NCBI RefSeq assembly: GCF_058153355.1 | Contig: NZ_CM177019.1 | Direction: 5' to 3' (one strand) | DNA: 64,000 nt | Shown here: one piece after another, positions 11,543 through 23,649 of the stretch | Numbering within the stretch: position 1 is the stretch's first letter | Layout of the letters: the number at the start of each line of letters is the position of its first letter | Notes under the pieces: model-generated | What the model saw: only the letters and a program-made list of their open reading frames with translations | Told to the model about the DNA's origin: nothing | Databases searched by the model: none | Program-made: the position numbers and the translations under genes

Positions 11543-14867
<3,325 letters not shown>

Positions 14868-15081
14868 CGCGCACCTCGTGGCTGATTATGGACGGCGTTA
14901 TTGGCAAAGTGGAACAAGACTCACTCCCGGGTCAGCAAACTCGAAAAATTGACGCTCTCATTATTTGTGCTTTCGTTTTTTTCTATCCGCCAATAAACCC
15001 GTTTTTTTGTTGCTATTTAGCGCCTTTGTCTTATTGACTTACTGGTAGGCTTTGCTACCAGAAATTATCCGGGAGATGAAA

Positions 15082-15396
15082 ATGTCAGCGATACAGGGGA
15101 TTGAAGGGGTTATTAGCCAGTTACAGGCTACGGCGATGAGTGCGCGTGCGCAGGAATCACTGCCGCAACCGACCATTAGTTTTGCCGGGCAGCTGCACGC
15201 CGCGCTCGATCGCATAAGCGATACACAAACCGCCGCCCGCACGCAGGCAGAAAAATTCACCCTCGGCGAACCCGGCGTGGCGTTAAACGATGTGATGACC
15301 GATATGCAAAAAGCCTCAGTTTCTATGCAAATGGGGATTCAGGTGCGTAATAAGCTGGTGGCGGCGTATCAGGAAGTGATGAGCATGCAGGTGTAA
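15082..15396 (+). CDS. fliE: Flagellar hook-basal body protein FliE (104 aa from [10 protein letters not shown])
   Basis: ORF 15052..15396 trimmed to the canonical start; divergent from fliF. Confidence 0.9.
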
Positions 15397-15729
15397 GTTG
15401 TGTAACCTGTTGTTGATTACATCCGATCTCACCGCGTGGGGCATGGATGGGGCAAACACACTCAATTTCTGGTTTAAAATGGAAACCTGATTCTGAAAGT
15501 TTTCTGCCATCCACGATCTGTAAACGCGATAACATGTTTTGTCTTCGCTTTGCTCATAGGAAGAGTGAACTCTTTCGTTAGCCTGGGGTTCCTTCTGATC
15601 ATTATTGTTCCTGCCTTTATCTCTTGCCACGCCAGAGCCCCCTGGATACACATACACCAGGATGAAAACGGTGAGTTGTGTTCAAACTGTAGTACAATTC
15701 TCTCCAGTATGAACAGGAAAGAATATGCT

Positions 15730-16062
15730 ATGAACCCTTATATTTATCTTGGTGGCGCAATACTTGCAGAGGTCATTGGTACAACCTTAATGAAGTTTTC
15801 AGAGGGGGTTACACGGTTATGGCCCTCTGTTGGCACAATTATTTGTTATTGTGCCTCATTCTGGTTATTAGCTCAGACGCTGGCTTATATACCTACAGGG
15901 ATTGCTTATGCTATCTGGTCAGGAGTCGGTATCGTTCTGATTAGTTTGCTTTCCTGGGGATTTTTTGGCCAACGGCTGGACCTGCCAGCCATCATAGGCA
16001 TGATGTTGATTTGTGCCGGTGTGTTAGTCATTAACTTGTTGTCACGAAGTGCACCGCATTAA
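15730..16062 (+). CDS. emrE: Small multidrug resistance (SMR) efflux protein EmrE
   Basis: C-terminal 110 aa of ORF 15550..16062 (MNPYIYLGGAILAEVIGTTLMKFSEG...) match recalled EmrE, including the conserved Glu14. Confidence 0.9.
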   Translation: MNPYIYLGGAILAEVIGTTLMKFSEGVTRLWPSVGTIICYCASFWLLAQTLAYIPTGIAYAIWSGVGIVLISLLSWGFFGQRLDLPAIIGMMLICAGVLVINLLSRSAPH

Positions 16063-16230
16063 AAAATAATCATCCTTGAGATAACAAGAATCTGATTTGT
16101 GCATATTATGGCTAATGTTCGGGGCAACTTTATAATTATGATTGCATTTGCGCGATCATTGCGCCTTTTTGCATAATGAGATCAAGGCACATCAAATAAA
16201 ATAACGATAGGTCACAACAAAGAGGTTTTT

Positions 16231-16782
16231 ATGAAAAAACTTATCGTTTCAAGTGTATTGGCATTCATAACATTTTCTGCGCAGGCCGCAGCATTTCAGG
16301 TCACTAGTAATGAAATAAAAACAGGAGAGCAACTTACAACGTCTCATGTATTTTCTGGATTTGGGTGTGAGGGGGGGAATACATCGCCCTCATTAACCTG
16401 GTCTGGTGCTCCTGAAGGCACCAAAAGCTTTGCCGTAACTGTGTATGATCCAGATGCGCCTACAGGCAGTGGATGGTGGCACTGGACTGTTGCTAATATT
16501 CCAGCAACGGTAACATATTTGCCCGCTGATGCAGGAAGACGTGATGGTACAAAACTTCCGACTGGTGCTGTCCAAGGCCGAAATGATTTTGGCTATGCGG
16601 GATTTGGTGGAGCATGTCCTCCCAAAGGAGATAAACCCCATCATTACCAGTTTAAAATATGGGCTCTAAAAACTGATAAGATTCCTGTGGATTCTAATTC
16701 CAGCGGAGCGTTAGTTGGTTATATGCTTAATGCCAATAAAATTGCAACCGCTGAGATAACACCCGTTTATGAGGTAAAGTAG
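16231..16782 (+). CDS. ybcL: YbcL, periplasmic PEBP/RKIP-family (UPF0098) protein; DLP12-prophage-type cargo
   Basis: 183-aa ORF with signal peptide and PEBP motifs (DPDAP, GWWHW, GxHHY); follows emrE as in DLP12. Confidence 0.85.
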   Translation: MKKLIVSSVLAFITFSAQAAAFQVTSNEIKTGEQLTTSHVFSGFGCEGGNTSPSLTWSGAPEGTKSFAVTVYDPDAPTGSGWWHWTVANIPATVTYLPADAGRRDGTKLPTGAVQGRNDFGYAGFGGACPPKGDKPHHYQFKIWALKTDKIPVDSNSSGALVGYMLNANKIATAEITPVYEVK

Positions 16783-16791
16783 GATAAGAGT

Positions 16792-17589
16792 ATGCTGGCA
16801 AAAGATAGGACTAACCTAAAGATTGAAGAAATACGGATGCATAAACATCATGAGATTCACAGGGTTAAGCCTCTTATGCCAGCTTTATGTCGTATCCGTC
16901 AGGGAAAAAAAGTTATCAATTGGGAGACGCATAGTCTAACTGTTGATAATAATCAGATAATATTATTTCCCTGTGGATATGAATTTTATATTGCGAATTA
17001 CCCAGAAGCAGGTCTTTATCTTGCAGAAATGCTTTATTATCCCATTGATCTAATTGAAAAGTTCCAAAATCTTTATGCGATAACCGATCAAATTCGTAAC
17101 ACGACAGGTTTCTGCTTACCTCAGAATCCCGAGTTAATATATTGTTGGGAGCAACTAAAAACATCTGTTTCCCGAGGCTTCTCAACGCAAATTCAGGAAC
17201 ACTTAGCAATGGGCGTTCTACTTTCATTAGGAGCACATCATGTTAATTGTTTACTTTTATCAGATAGTAAACAATCATTAATAAGTCGTTGTTATAACCT
17301 AATGCTATCCGAACCTGGAACAAAATGGACAGCAAACAGGGTAGCGAGATATCTCTACATTTCTGTTTCCACATTGCATCGCCGTCTGGCAAGCGAGGGA
17401 GTAAGTTTTCAAAGTATATTGGACGACGTGAGGTTAAATAATGCGTTGTCTGCTATACAAACGACAGTAAAACCCATCAGCGAGATTGCCAGGGAAAATG
17501 GTTACAAGTGTCCTTCTCGTTTTACTGAAAGGTTCCATAATCGTTTTAAGATAACACCAAGAGAGCTAAGAAAAGCGTCCAGAGAGTAA
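16792..17589 (+). CDS. ybcM: AraC-family transcriptional regulator YbcM
   Basis: 265-aa ORF with C-terminal AraC-type HTH; order matches DLP12 ybcL-ybcM. Confidence 0.8.
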
Positions 17590-17598
17590 AAGTATTTT

Positions 17599-17718
17599 AT
17601 GAAGGAGCAACAGCATCGATTTTTATTTTGGAAAATCAATACGGCATACTCAACCTATTGGAGCCTGAACAATCCGGTGACTTCTGCGCTAATCGGGGAC
17701 GTTTATAAGCACATATAA
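17599..17718 (+). CDS. Candidate small ORF (39 aa, MKEQQHRFLFWKINTAYSTYWSLNNPVTSALIGDVYKHI), possibly ylcH-like
   Basis: Short ORF immediately after ybcM, where DLP12 carries ylcH; no convincing ribosome-binding site. Confidence 0.25.
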   Translation: MKEQQHRFLFWKINTAYSTYWSLNNPVTSALIGDVYKHI

Positions 17719-18042
17719 TTGATACTCTCTTCCTCCATCACAATTTCAGAAATGCACGTGTGATTTTTTGGCATCCGGCGTTTGGACTATGTGGAGTTCA
17801 AGAGTGGGAAAGTTACAAGAGGTTGAGGGGATAATTAAAGGGATGCTTATGACATTAGATATCCGGTTAGGTACGGATATCGTTGTTATTAAATCTAATT
17901 GATACGTTAATTGTTCACTGAGTATTATTAAAAATGGGGCGTTGAAACGCCCCAGAAAATAAAGGGTAATATATAACAGAAGGTTTATATAGTCAGAAGC
18001 AAGATAGCGCTTCTAAGGAAAGTGGCTTGAGGGGGCCACTTA

Positions 18043-18075
18043 TATGTTGGGGAGGCAAAGCCTCCCACAACATAT
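18043..18075 (-). terminator. Perfect inverted repeat (atgttggggaggc / gcctcccacaacat) just downstream of the porin gene
   Basis: 13-bp stem with 4-nt loop directly 3' of the porin stop at 18091. Confidence 0.6.
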
Positions 18076-18090
18076 CTTTGAGTAATCAGA

Positions 18091-19173
18091 TTAGAACTGG
18101 TAAACCAATCCTACAGCAACGATATCATCGGTAGCAACGCCAGATGCTTTCGTGAAATCGCTCTTATCAATCAGGTTGATTTTGTAATCAACAAAAGTGG
18201 ACATATTTTTGTTGAAGTAATAGGTTGCACCTACATCAATATATTCAACCAGGTCCTGATCACCCCACGCACCCAAGTCTTTTCCTTTAGATTGCAGGTA
18301 AGCAACGGACGGACGCAGACCGAAGTCGAACTGATATTGTGCAACTACTTCGAAGTTTTGTGCTTTGTTGGCAATATGGTTATTACCAAAAACAGTCATG
18401 TTCTGGGTTTCAGAATAGGTGGTAGCCAGATAGATGTTGTTCGCATCATATTTCAGACCAGCTGCCCATACTTCAGCATTTTGACCAGATGCATTCAGGC
18501 TGTTGTTACCGTAGATAACCTGATCATTAGTGCGGTCAGATTTAGCATAGGTTGCACCTACACCGAATCCTTCATACTCATAAGTAGTGGAGAAACCGAA
18601 ACCATCACCGTTAGCTTCAGTTACGTCAGTGCGGTCATTTTTACCCTGATACTGAGCAGCAAAGTTCAGACCATCAACCAGACCAAAGAAGTCGTTGTTA
18701 CGATAAGTTGCAACACCTGTGGTGCGACCAGTCATGAACACATCTGTTTGGGTCCAGGTATCGCCACCGAATTCTGGCAGAACGTCGGTCCATGCACCGA
18801 TATCGTATGCTACACCGTAGTTACGGCCATAATCGATGGAGCCGTAGTCACCGAATTTCAGGCCAGCGAAGGCAAGACGGGTTTTATCTTTGGAAGAACC
18901 TTGAGATTCAGCACGGTTGCCTTTGAATTCATATTCCCACTGACCGAAACCAGTCAGTTGATCGTTGATTTGGGTTTCGCCTTTGAAGCCCAGACGAACA
19001 TAAGTTGTGTCGCCATCATCTGCATCGTTAGAAGAGAAGTAGTGCTTAGCATTAACTTTTCCGTACAGATCCAGCTTGTTACTGTCTTTATTGTAAATCT
19101 CTGCTGCCTGAGCAGACATCGCCATCAGTACTGATGCAGCTACAGCAGAAATTGCCACTGTTAATTTTTTCAT
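18091..19173 (-). CDS. nmpC: Intact NmpC/OmpD-type general porin of the OmpC/OmpF family
   Basis: 360-aa ORF with signal peptide ([23 protein letters not shown]) and C-terminal ...VGLVYQF; closest to recalled NmpC; prophage-type cargo on the opposite strand to emrE-ybcM as in DLP12. Confidence 0.8.
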
Positions 19174-19703
19174 CGTGAGCCCTTTTATTTGAACTATTAT
19201 TTAAAAATGATGTCACTGCACCACAAATATTCATCTAATCAATGAGATTATTTCAAGATGTAAGTTTTAGTTTCTCATTTAAATTGTGAAGTAGATCCCT
19301 ATTTTTATCTGAACTGTTTCTATTGCACACAATGCATGACTATTTTGTGAACGAATATAAATTTGGTAGTCAAATTATATTAAAGGTTGTTATTTATGAT
19401 TGACTCATAATTTATTTATTTAATTTAAATAGCCTAAAAATAACCATGGAGATTATTTGCATGATATTTGTTTAGATTTGTTAATGTAGTTGAGGTGATT
19501 TTATTTAATACGCAATATAGCGCCGCTTGATATTAGTTCTATTTTTTTTTTGCGTAAGATAGATGAGACAAACTGAGACGCATAATGGTTTGCAAGGCTC
19601 TAATACTTTGATGTTGAGGATGTGATGGGGCATGTACGTGCATAGTACAATGATGTCCATGCCGGTGTGGATAATCTCCAGGCTTATCCGGTGCGCCGTA
19701 AAA

Positions 19704-20177
19704 CCCCGTCCTTCAGGGCGGGGATATAAGGCGCGGTTTTCCACCTGACCAGGTGTTTGCTGTTGTTCAATGTATTGGCGGATGACGGATATTGGCGCAC
19801 CTCCGCAGCTACTGGCAAAATAGCCGGGACTCCACAAAACGCCTTTGTAGTAATACCTGACTGCAATATCTGGTCGATCTCGTCGCAGTAATCTACCCGA
19901 TACGCCTTTGTGGCTGTTTACCAGACTGGATATCGCCAGTTTGGGAGGATAGTTAATTAACAAATGGACGTGATTCTGGTTCGCCATCCATTTCAACCAG
20001 TTCAGCTTCAAAATCAGCACATACATTTGAAAAGTAAGTGCGTAGTTTTTCTGTCGCGTCATGGTCAAAAATCTGACGTCGGTATCTGGTGACAAAGACC
20101 CGGTGAACATGCATCAGAAAAACACAGTGCCTTCCACGCCGGATATCGGTTTCTTTTTTCACAGACCAAAGTATCAT
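19704..20177 (-). pseudogene. tnpA: IS200/IS605 Y1 (HuH) transposase TnpA, split by a frameshift
   Basis: N-terminal part in ORF 19953..20177 (HCVFLMHVHRVFVTRYRRQIF...ELVEMDGEPE); HuH motif and catalytic-Tyr region in a different frame in ORF 19505..20110 (NHVHLLINYPP...SCGGAPISVIRQYIEQQQ); frame switch near 19965..19985. Confidence 0.7.
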
Positions 20178-20184
20178 TTGGCCT

Positions 20185-21393
20185 GTGAAACGACTACAAG
20201 CATTTAAATTCCAGTTAAGACCAGGTGGTCAACAGGAGCGTGAAATGAGGCGCTTCGCAGGCGCATGTCGTTTCGTTTTCAATCGTGCTCTGGCACGTCA
20301 GAATGAGAATCATGAGGCCGGTAATAAATACATCCCTTACGGGAAAATGGCTTCCTGGCTGGTTGAGTGGAAAAATGCCACTGAAACGCAATGGCTTAAA
20401 GATTCGCCCTCACAGCCATTGCAACAGTCACTGAAAGACCTTGAGCGGGCTTACAAAAACTTCTTCCAGAAGCGGGCTGCTTTTCCCCGATTCAAAAAGC
20501 GGGGACAGAATGATGCATTCCGCTACCCGCAGGGCGTTAAGCTCGATCAGGAAAACAGCCGTATTTTTCTGCCGAAACTGGGCTGGATGCGCTACCGGAA
20601 CAGCCGTCAGGTCACGGGTGTTGTGAAAAATGTCACGGTCAGCCAGTCCTGCGGTAAGTGGTACATCAGTATTCAGACAGAAAGTGAAGTATCCACTCCG
20701 GTTCATCCTTCAGCATCAATGGTCGGGCTGGATGCTGGCGTGGCTAAACTCGCCACGCTGTCAGATGGCACAGTCTTTGAGCCTGTAAACAGTTTTCAGA
20801 AAAACCAGAAGACGCTGGCGAGACTTCAGCGACAGTTAAGCCGCAAGGTCAAATTCAGCAACAACTGGCAGAAGCAGAAACGCAAAATACAGCGACTGCA
20901 TTCCCGTATCGCAAATATCCGCAGGGACTACCTTCACAAAGTCACAACGACCGTCAGCAAAAACCACGCAATGATAGTCATTGAGGATTTGAAGGTCAGC
21001 AACATGTCAAAGTCAGCAGCGGGTACGGTCAGCCAGCCGGGGCGCAATGTCCGGGCAAAATCAGGTTTAAACCGTTCGATACTGGATCAGGGCTGGTATG
21101 AAATGCGCCGCCAGCTTGAGCACAAGCAGCTCTGGAGTGGCGGTCAGGTGCTTGCTGTTCCGCCAGCGTACACAAGCCAGCGTTGCGCGTGCTGTGGTCA
21201 TACAGCGAAAGAAAACCGCCTGTCACAAAGTAAATTCAGATGCCAGGTATGTGGATATACAGCGAACGCCGATGTAAATGGCGCTCGTAACATTTTAGCG
21301 GCGGGGCACGCCGTTCTTGCCTGTGGAGAGATGGTGCAGTCAGGCCGCCCGTTGAAGCAGGAACCCACCGAAATGATTCAGGCGACAGCCTGA
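20185..21393 (+). CDS. tnpB: TnpB (IS605 OrfB), RuvC-like RNA-guided endonuclease; intact; GTG start
   Basis: 402-aa ORF; N-terminus resembles TnpB; C-terminal zinc finger CxxC...CxxC ([37 protein letters not shown]) and RuvC-like segments. Confidence 0.85.
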
Positions 21394-21432
21394 ACGTAGC
21401 AGGGATCCACGTCCTTCAGGGCGTGGAGGATG

Positions 21433-22105
21433 TCAACAAACAGGTTGAATTAACTTCGCGCCCTGGTTTTTGACATTACCCACCGCGCGCGACACAGGGT
21501 GCCAGGTGAACTGGTTTGCTGGAACACAGCCACTGGCAGAAATTTCAGAGGCTTCTTTACCGCTAATCTCTTGCCGCATCCATTCCCGCGCAGCTTCTGG
21601 CGACAGTACCAGCGGGCGGCGGTCATGAATATCTACCAGACCCTGGTCTGCTGCTGCAGTGACAATTAAAAATCCTTCGGCTTCGTCACCACGCTCAAAC
21701 GGTGTGCTACCTATCGCGGCTATAAAAACAGGTTGTCCATCAGCGCGATAGATAAAATAAGGCTGTTTTTTTGTCGCCTTCTTTTTTCCACTCAAACCAG
21801 CCATCGGCAAAACAGATTGCCCGACCATGTTGCCAGAGCGGTTTAAACATACGACTGGTTGCCGCAGTTTCTACGCGGGCGTTAATCAGCGGCGGTTTAT
21901 CCCACCATCCGGGAGCATATCCCCAGAAAACCGGATCCAGATGAAGGTGTTCATCACGTTCACTGAGCAGAAGAACTTTGGTTCCCGGCGCGACGTTGTA
22001 TCTGCCAATGGGTTCGGGATCGTAGGGAATATCGCGTTCAATATCTTCCGCGAGAAGCGCAAGGTAATCTTCACGCGTTTGGGATTGGGCAAAGCGTCCA
22101 CACAT
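21433..22105 (-). pseudogene. yedK: YedK (SRAP/HMCES-family abasic-site processing protein) disrupted by a +1 frameshift in a homopolymer run
   Basis: N-terminal 121-aa ORF (MCGRFAQSQ..., catalytic Cys2) and C-terminal 131-aa ORF overlap in different frames; 7-nt T run at 21766..21772 where the intact reading requires 6. Confidence 0.8.
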
Positions 22106-22213
22106 AGCAACCTCCTGAGATCATACTGAAAAGAATAGGAGAGGGGGCGGGTAAAATCTATGTGATGCAGAGGTAACGATGTTCCCGCTGTTGGCCACAG
22201 CGGGAATGAGGGA

Positions 22214-22447
22214 TTACTTCTGAATTAAATAACGAATGGTCGGCCCGTCTTGCTGAATATCCAGCACCGTATAGCCGTGATTACGCGCATCCAGTGGAAT
22301 ATTATTGATCGACTGCGGACAGTCGCTCACCACTTCCAGGATCTCACCTTTTTTTAATTGCGGCATCGCCTCAAGGGTTGCGACTGCCGGATAAGGGCAG
22401 GGTTCACCCACCATATCAAGGCGGTAATCAGGAACGATATTTTTCAT
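22214..22447 (-). CDS. yedF: TusA-like sulfurtransferase-family protein YedF
   Basis: 77-aa ORF with CPxP motif (EPCPYP). Confidence 0.88.
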   Translation of the reverse strand: MKNIVPDYRLDMVGEPCPYPAVATLEAMPQLKKGEILEVVSDCPQSINNIPLDARNHGYTVLDIQQDGPTIRYLIQK

Positions 22448-23649
22448 GCGATCTCCTTAGCAGTCTGCGGTGCCGCACGGCGGAAGAAGCGTTTTTCCCA
22501 GCCGATAATCAACATCAGCGCAGCAAACAGCAGCAAATATGTCACCAGCAGGCCACCCATCGGACCAAAGGTTTTCAGTAGGTTGATTTTGTCCCAGTCG
22601 GTGGCCAGCGCCGGAGCGAAATCATCCCAGTAATACGCCAGAATCGTTGAGCCGATCACGTTGCCCAGACCGACCCACCAGTAGTGCACCTGGCCTTCTA
22701 CCGCGCGGTACATCCAGCCGGTTTCGCAACCGCCTGCCAGCACGATGCCAAAACCAAACAGTAAACCACCGATTACCGCGTTCGGCCCCGCCCACATGAT
22801 TTTGGGTTCAACGCCTAACTGGACGTAACTGAAGATCCCGATGGCACTTACCGCCATACCGATAATGATTGCTTTCGCCATGTGGGTACGTCCGGTGATC
22901 CACATATCGCGGAACGCCGAAGTAAAGCAGATTTGCGCACGTTCAATCAGTAAACCAAAGCCGACGCCAAACAGCATTGCCAGCCCCAGTTTTGGTTGGT
23001 TCATCGCCGTCAGCAGCGCCCAGCCCAGCATGCCGAAAAAGACCAGCATCCCGAGACGAAAACGACGCCGCGCCTGATCCGGTTTTTGCGTCAGCGGTGA
23101 GGCGGCAGAAACTTTCTGCATTTTCACGGGAATACGGAAGATGGGCAGCAGGGTAAAGCGCGCGCCAAACCATGAACCAATGGCAGTGGCGATGGCAAAG
23201 AACCAGGCATGCAGCGAGAACTGAGGAATGCCGGTAAAGAACGCCGCCAGGTTACAGCCCATTGCCAGACGCGCGCCAAAACCGGCGATAATGCCGCCAA
23301 TGATGGCCTGCATAATGCGGATACGGCTGCGCGGCATGCGTAGTTTGACATTGTTGGCCCACAGCGCTGCAGCAAAGCAGCCGCCAAACATACCGAGGAT
23401 CATCATGCCGTCGATGCGGGTTAATGGCGATCCTTCCAGATGAATAATTTTAAAATAACCCCACTCTTCAGCATGGACGCCGAACAGCTGCAGGAGCTGA
23501 CCGCCCCAACGGGTAAATTCACCCGTGACAGCCCAAAAGGTGCCAGTGATGCCAAAGTAGTAAGTGGAGAGAATACCCGCCGCGATGACCGCAGGGATGG
23601 GTGCCCAGAATTTAATCAACCAGGCGTGTTTGAATTGCTGCCATGACAT
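22444..23649 (-). CDS. yedE: YedE, YeeE/YedE-family inner membrane transporter (selenium/thiosulfate-related)
   Basis: 401-aa polytopic membrane ORF overlapping yedF. Confidence 0.88.
   Translation of the reverse strand: MSWQQFKHAWLIKFWAPIPAVIAAGILSTYYFGITGTFWAVTGEFTRWGGQLLQLFGVHAEEWGYFKIIHLEGSPLTRIDGMMILGMFGGCFAAALWANNVKLRMPRSRIRIMQAIIGGIIAGFGARLAMGCNLAAFFTGIPQFSLHAWFFAIATAIGSWFGARFTLLPIFRIPVKMQKVSAASPLTQKPDQARRRFRLGMLVFFGMLGWALLTAMNQPKLGLAMLFGVGFGLLIERAQICFTSAFRDMWITGRTHMAKAIIIGMAVSAIGIFSYVQLGVEPKIMWAGPNAVIGGLLFGFGIVLAGGCETGWMYRAVEGQVHYWWVGLGNVIGSTILAYYWDDFAPALATDWDKINLLKTFGPMGGLLVTYLLLFAALMLIIGWEKRFFRRAAPQTAKEIA

Follow-up and report, generated by a model that had tools for sequence, protein, structure and literature searches.

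A prophage-type porin gene that is complete, is preceded by a long and very AT-rich stretch of DNA and has an insertion sequence (IS) beyond that stretch raises the question of whether it is a silenced foreign gene, a gene affected by its IS neighbour or simply an accessory porin under its own regulation. We addressed this for a porin gene in a window of 64,000 nucleotides (the whole stretch of DNA analysed, from contig NZ_CM177019.1 of assembly GCF_058153355.1), to which all coordinates refer (Table 1). Both the gene, an accessory porin, and its accessory locus are already known, and its native regulatory region has been studied before. Very probably it encodes a functional general-diffusion porin of the NmpC/OmpD/Lc type, carried on a DLP12-like prophage remnant and driven by its native, conditional promoter, with the IS as a bystander.

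Table 1. Features of the porin locus and its surroundings (positions in the 64,000-nucleotide window)
Feature	Position	Strand	Remarks
emrE	15730-16062	+	DLP12-type cargo, 92.7% identity to DLP12
ybcL	16231-16782	+	DLP12-type cargo
ybcM	16792-17589	+	DLP12-type cargo
Antiterminator Q (QuuD-like), C-terminal remnant, 32 codons	17806-17904	+	Still translates to the last 32 Q residues
pR'-like sigma-70 promoter match TTGATA-18-TATTAT	17899-17928	+	Antisense toward porin 3' end
Terminator-like hairpin	17935-17954	T-run on porin strand	Beyond the pR'-like match
Porin CDS, NmpC/OmpD/Lc type	18091-19173	-	360 aa, stop codon included
Signal peptide, residues 1-23	19105-19173	-	Probable cleavage site AQA|AE
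Leader/promoter region	19174-19511	-	338 bp, 25.4% GC; shares homology with the DNA upstream of nmpC in DLP12 and in live lambdoid phages
Equivalent of K-12 PnmpC	19174-19372	-	Positions -199 to -1 of the porin
CRP-like site AGGGATCTACTTCACA	19285-19300	-	8/10 consensus positions; conserved in the K-12, CFT073 and phage sequences compared
Locus-specific spacer, 177 bp	19512-19688	-	Between phage-derived leader and yedK stop codon/IS
IS200/IS605-family element, IS609-like, 1,748 bp	19689-21436	+	From comparison with IS-free locus, 1-bp ambiguity
tnpA, Y1 transposase	19745-20177	-	Frameshift: one additional base at 19974 compared with locus L007, whose 143-aa copy is intact
tnpB/insQ, RNA-guided endonuclease, 402 aa, intact	20185-21393	+	Pfam and NCBIfam matches; divergent from tnpA
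yedK (SRAP), core-genome flank	21434-22105	-	One Cys codon added by the IS; frameshift, extra base at 21766

The porin reading frame is uninterrupted: its translation has zero internal stops and no frameshift, and it matches Pfam Porin_1 (PF00267) over the full length of the profile (E = 1.3e-153, residues 29-360, profile positions 1-337 of 337). Its constriction-loop L3 motif, PEFGG, is found at residue 133, and VGLVYQF forms the C-terminus. The preliminary description of a complete porin of 360 residues, with a signal peptide and a C-terminal Phe, is thus borne out. End-to-end matches were obtained with the solved chains of OmpK37, OmpC, PhoE and OmpF (E-values 1e-138 to 1e-109). These chains were deposited as mature proteins and cover residues 24 to 360 of the window porin; since they align from residue 24, cleavage of the signal peptide is expected after Ala23. 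The protein would then be exported via Sec and inserted into the outer membrane by BAM, with the terminal Phe as recognition feature, and its fold is predicted to be a trimeric 16-stranded beta-barrel with a water-filled channel, as in other members of the OmpC/OmpF/PhoE family. No second porin-like gene was found within the 64-kb window by tblastn.

The database name of this gene is misleading. The protein passes the cut-off of the NCBIfam OmpC subfamily model (520.8 bits, cut-off 484) and fails the equivalog cut-offs for both PhoE and OmpF, and the label 'ompC' given by PGAP/RefSeq comes from that subfamily-level model and not from orthology. We rejected the possibility that it is the true ompC, as it is not located beside micF/rcsD but in a prophage remnant, with ybcM and yedK as its neighbours. 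The names NmpC, OmpD and Lc are absent among the 48 solved-chain matches. The protein shares 90.1% amino acid identity with the IS5-reconstructed NmpC of K-12 (DLP12, b0553), including an identical signal peptide, and the divergence is concentrated in two or three surface-loop segments. With 'OmpD' of the live lambdoid phage PhiR34_1 the identity is 99.2%. Judged by its identity to NmpC and to phage porins, the protein is a member of the NmpC/OmpD/Lc group, and on this point as well the preliminary description was right. The OmpD of Salmonella is counted in the same group by the nmpC/ompD naming for E. coli (PMC2808357) and may be an orthologue. WP_000737290.1 is identical to the window porin over all 360 residues, and RefSeq annotation places it between ybcM and yedK in ERP001, in 2017.17.01CC and in the uropathogenic strain CFT073 as well. 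At least 1,000 public contigs contain exactly this sequence, annotated variously as 'porin OmpD', 'outer membrane porin protein LC' or 'porin OmpC'. The locus is of little importance except for correct annotation: what RefSeq calls 'ompC' is really a prophage porin of the NmpC/OmpD/Lc type, and the label could cause confusion with the true ompC in comparative or resistance studies.

Compared with K-12, the window has an island of 4.2 kb (15534-19688, IS excluded) between fliE and yedK, bounded by a short intG-side remnant beside fliE and by the yedK stop codon. At this locus K-12 has yedL-yedN-intG' and no porin. The initial claim that both prophage-type porin genes of K-12 are pseudogenes is therefore correct only for nmpC of DLP12, which is the prophage porin and carries an IS5 insertion close to its 3' end, whereas the fliE-yedK locus of K-12 contains no porin at all. 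The gene order in the island is fliE-emrE-ybcL-ybcM-(Q remnant)-porin-yedK. The segment from ybcL through ybcM to the start of ylcH is 89.6% identical to DLP12, the last 99 nt of quuD with the Q-nmpC spacer 87.3%, and nmpC with its 338 bp upstream 85.4%. The emrE gene of this genome thus belongs to the prophage remnant at fliE-yedK.

In live phages the full order is ybcL-ybcM-ybcN-ninE-ybcO-rusA-ylcG-Q, followed by the porin on the opposite strand and then by S-R-Rz-bor. The porins of PhiR34_1, ev243 and PA-2-like phages have this position between Q and the holin gene S, and their DNA is 92% identical to window positions 17806-19511. Since the island is collinear with DLP12 and with live phages and has kept the Q remnant, it is best read from its gene content as a collapsed DLP12-like lambdoid prophage of which the cargo genes alone survive. 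In K-12, emrE, ybcL, ybcM and Q likewise lie downstream of nmpC, but there DLP12 is largely complete and located at argU, whereas the remnant in the window lacks ybcK, ybcN to Q and the lysis and morphogenesis genes. The 32 remaining codons of Q mark the internal deletion of ybcN to Q from the ancestral prophage; in contrast to the live phages, this phage is dead, and while the Q remnant and the leader on either side of the porin are kept, the lysis genes are lost. In the ancestral phage the porin would have been a lysogenic-conversion gene, flanked by Q and the lysis genes and oriented opposite to them, and the later loss of ybcN to Q and of everything past the porin leader would have produced the 4.2-kb remnant between fliE and yedK. 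Three hairpins between the pR'-like promoter match and the porin stop codon are conserved in K-12 DLP12 and in phage PhiR34_1.

The full stretch upstream of the porin (19174-19688) is 515 bp long with 30.9% GC, and it holds the lowest-GC 300 bp of the whole window (19184-19483: 24%, against a mean of 50% with a standard deviation of 5.7%, thus about 4.6 standard deviations below). The preliminary description of an AT-rich upstream region of about 500 bp agrees with this; it correctly let the region end at the left end of the IS, but its end coordinate of 19685 is 3-4 bp short. Two parts can be distinguished, a phage-derived leader and a locus-specific spacer. Positions -199 to -1 of the porin share 99.5% identity with CFT073 and 84.5% with K-12, and over the 100 bp nearest to the start codon the identity with K-12 rises to 92%. 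A scan with the sigma-70 consensus gave no convincing -35/-10 pair in the proximal 200 bp of the leader, and its sole minus-strand match in the leader is at 19383-19354. Therefore, we relied on the 5' RACE and deletion data from K-12 to place the promoter. If transcription starts at the G at 19221, which is a guess, the CRP-like site would be centred near -71.5. An Rfam scan of positions 14500-22500 gave no match in the leader or the 3' region of the porin gene.

In K-12, the transcription start of PnmpC was mapped by 5' RACE; CRP activates the promoter, OmpR, IHF and MprA repress it, and RyhB exerts control as well (PMC11677980). The promoter has enough strength to be the main driver of the IS5 transposase, and deletion of the 199-bp region abolished the contribution of the nmpC promoter to IS5 transposition (PMC11677980). 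In K-12 MC4100, nmpC mRNA rose 16.5-fold within 4 h of a shift from 23 to 37 °C (PMC8544407). By analogy with these data, the window porin would have a sigma-70 promoter of its own, no more than about 200 bp ahead of the start codon and in an AT-rich tract that H-NS probably binds. CRP would activate this promoter, OmpR, IHF and MprA would repress it, and its induction at 37 °C compared with 23 °C would be strong. In Salmonella the abundant general porin OmpD is controlled by RybB, SdsR and MicC acting in the early coding sequence (PMC4911921). When the seed regions of K-12 MicC, RybB, SdsR and RyhB were paired with positions -80 to +150 of the porin mRNA, the energies were just 0.8-2.1 standard deviations better than those of shuffled sequences, which is no convincing margin. 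The RybB 5' end has an exact 7-nt complement at +14 to +20 and nucleotides 10-18 of MicC have a 9-nt complement at +80 to +88, neither of which is significant.

Could the porin be a cryptic, horizontally acquired gene that H-NS keeps switched off and that becomes visible only in an hns mutant? The preliminary description saw in the upstream region a trait typical of H-NS-silenced genes, and some observations agree with such a reading. The AT-rich regulatory DNA expected of such a gene is present, as the leader has 24-25% GC compared with 50% for the window and includes the window minimum. The nmpC/essD intergenic region of K-12 is one of 78 'promoter islands' and was bound by H-NS in three of three ChIP-chip studies compiled (PMC3661553), and stronger expression at 37 than at 23 °C is a typical trait of genes modulated by H-NS. 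The AT-rich leader is thus very likely a target of H-NS, by analogy with K-12, and such targeting would fit the thermoregulation at 37 °C. A scan for the H-NS nucleation motif TCGATAAATT, allowing up to 2 mismatches, gave one match with 2 mismatches in the leader; over all 64 kb the motif is not clearly enriched (85 matches versus 68.5 ± 8.3 expected).

The other property expected of a silenced gene, little expression in the wild type, is not what the literature on near-identical copies reports. The promoter is active in K-12. In CFT073, the gene described as 'nmpC precursor/c2348' shows a strong preference for 37 °C in both RNA and protein levels (PMC12890032), and from gene order and the identical protein c2348 is very probably the porin of the yedK-fliE locus. 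An NmpC spot was identified on 2D gels of outer membranes of adherent-invasive E. coli (AIEC; PMC9409007); the nmpC primers of that study match the window exactly at 18267-18286 and 19110-19129 and give the published product of 863 bp. NmpC was also found in vesicles of Nissle 1917 (PMC6598517). Hence no hns mutation was needed to see RNA and protein in wild-type cells of CFT073, AIEC and Nissle, and a porin of this type is already known from outer membranes or vesicles of uropathogenic E. coli, AIEC and Nissle. In Shigella flexneri an nmpC gene is induced anaerobically, for which FNR is partly responsible. We infer from these near-identical sequences that the window porin is conditionally expressed and not silent, with its expression dampened according to conditions. 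A gene that is normally off seems unlikely, and the claim of an H-NS-silenced extra porin is half right, because H-NS probably targets the leader while silence does not follow.

The CFT073 locus has the identical protein in the same position and gene order, with an upstream region that is 97-99.5% identical, but there no IS separates the leader from an intact yedK. The alternative that the preliminary description had set against its own reading, a normally regulated porin gene conserved at this place, essentially fits. Published work connects porins of the NmpC type with resistance to heat and with sensitivity to phages and colicins; the early NmpC genetics on phage and colicin sensitivity (Pugsley and Schnaitman, 1978, as cited in PMC8544407) agree with the effect on susceptibility that had been suggested for the window porin.

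What remains is the IS. It has the features of the IS200/IS605 family and of IS609/insQ-type elements, namely a Y1 TnpA together with TnpB, subterminal hairpins, and a short target without unambiguous duplication. It lies after TTATC inside the yedK stop codon (19684-19689 / 21436-21440), and both ends have the hairpin CC(C/A)CGTCCTTCAGGGCG(G/T)GG on the plus strand. From the subterminal hairpin and the orientation of tnpB, the end that adjoins the porin leader is the left one; read on the porin strand, this end has a GC-rich terminal hairpin followed by TTTT. Because the insertion is in the stop codon, YedK would end in QPVC and not in QPV. The Pfam Y1_Tnp domain is recorded on the equivalent 143-aa gene of locus L008. 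Unlike a typical member of its type, the element has a frameshifted tnpA here and occupies the yedK stop codon as a fixed insertion in about 20% of complete E. coli genomes.

As tnpA and the porin are co-oriented without a gene in between, the IS could change porin expression through readthrough from tnpA or an altered H-NS/CRP architecture; this could give a distinct porin phenotype, possibly tied to gene loss in related lineages. However, 515 bp separate the IS from the ATG, which places it outside both the 338-bp leader and the region corresponding to the 199-bp PnmpC of K-12; the hairpin with TTTT stands at its end on the porin strand, and tnpA is frameshifted. Because of its distance, its location outside the phage-derived leader and its own terminal hairpin between it and the gene, the IS is most likely a neutral neighbour of the porin.

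The distribution of the locus was assessed in 5,426 complete E. coli genomes with junction-specific queries. The junction of ybcM, deleted Q and porin occurs in 453 of them, and 448 complete genomes have the porin, leader and yedK without IS. The same IS at the same yedK site without porin is found in about 1,091 genomes (about 20%). Porin and IS occur together in one complete genome, AP027822, which has an extra IS1 inside tnpA, and in a few draft assemblies; one of these drafts, GCA_043012465.1, differs from the window by 0 mismatches and 1 gap over 13.2 kb. Related porins inside prophages beside an intact quuD occur in many further genomes. A count of 2,328 genomes, based on coverage of at least 80% of positions 17600-19700, was rejected as the frequency of the porin island, because it is inflated: copies within prophages by themselves already reach 81% coverage of that query. 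The window is thus a rare combination of two common features, and the locus illustrates prophage decay and three population states, in which the porin is present without the IS, the IS without the porin or, rarely, both together.

In genomes with the IS and without the porin, the AT-rich leader remains, together with 41 nt from the start of the porin reading frame. Compared with loci L006, L007 and L008, the porin was lost by a clean deletion of 1,222 bp (17911-19132), with no obvious microhomology at the endpoints. The ends of this deletion are not adjacent to the IS, which makes it unlikely that the IS caused the loss directly, and the association of porin loss with IS presence is probably phylogenetic. 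The IS may nevertheless have influenced the fate of the porin, because its loss is almost general among genomes with the IS at this site: against 1,091 complete genomes with the IS and without the porin there is a single one that retains the porin. In view of the position, hairpin, frameshift and deletion ends noted above, a change of porin expression by the IS is nonetheless very unlikely. A related possibility is that the window is a rare intermediate in which the IS is fixed at the yedK stop while the porin is still there, and that the IS clade then lost the porin by the clean 1.2-kb deletion under selection (for example by porin-dependent phages, colicins or antibiotics), or that the IS subtly alters porin expression; we consider this quite improbable. 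If either of these readings were true, the locus would be a natural experiment on the costs and benefits of an accessory porin.

The porin could also be intact by chance, as a pseudogene in waiting in a lineage that is gathering frameshifts. Both neighbours, tnpA and yedK, have single-base frameshifts, and the sister state has the porin deleted. Against this, the 360 residues are identical to the allele on at least 1,000 contigs and the promoter is 99.5% identical to CFT073. The extra base at 21766 in yedK falls in an A-run, and the insertions at 19974 and 21766 could be true pseudogenisation or homopolymer assembly errors. Ongoing decay of the porin is therefore extremely unlikely, and a functional accessory porin under its native promoter is the preferred reading. 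In GCA_043012465.1, tnpA and yedK are uncalled as well.

An intact TnpB beside a dead TnpA at one site fits either a domesticated or a merely immobilised element. Sub-threshold Rfam matches to HgcC, RAGATH-18 and sot0042 (E 0.1-0.55) occur on the plus strand at 21266-21449; they overlap the 3' end of tnpB and the right end of the IS, where an omega-RNA guide scaffold is expected.
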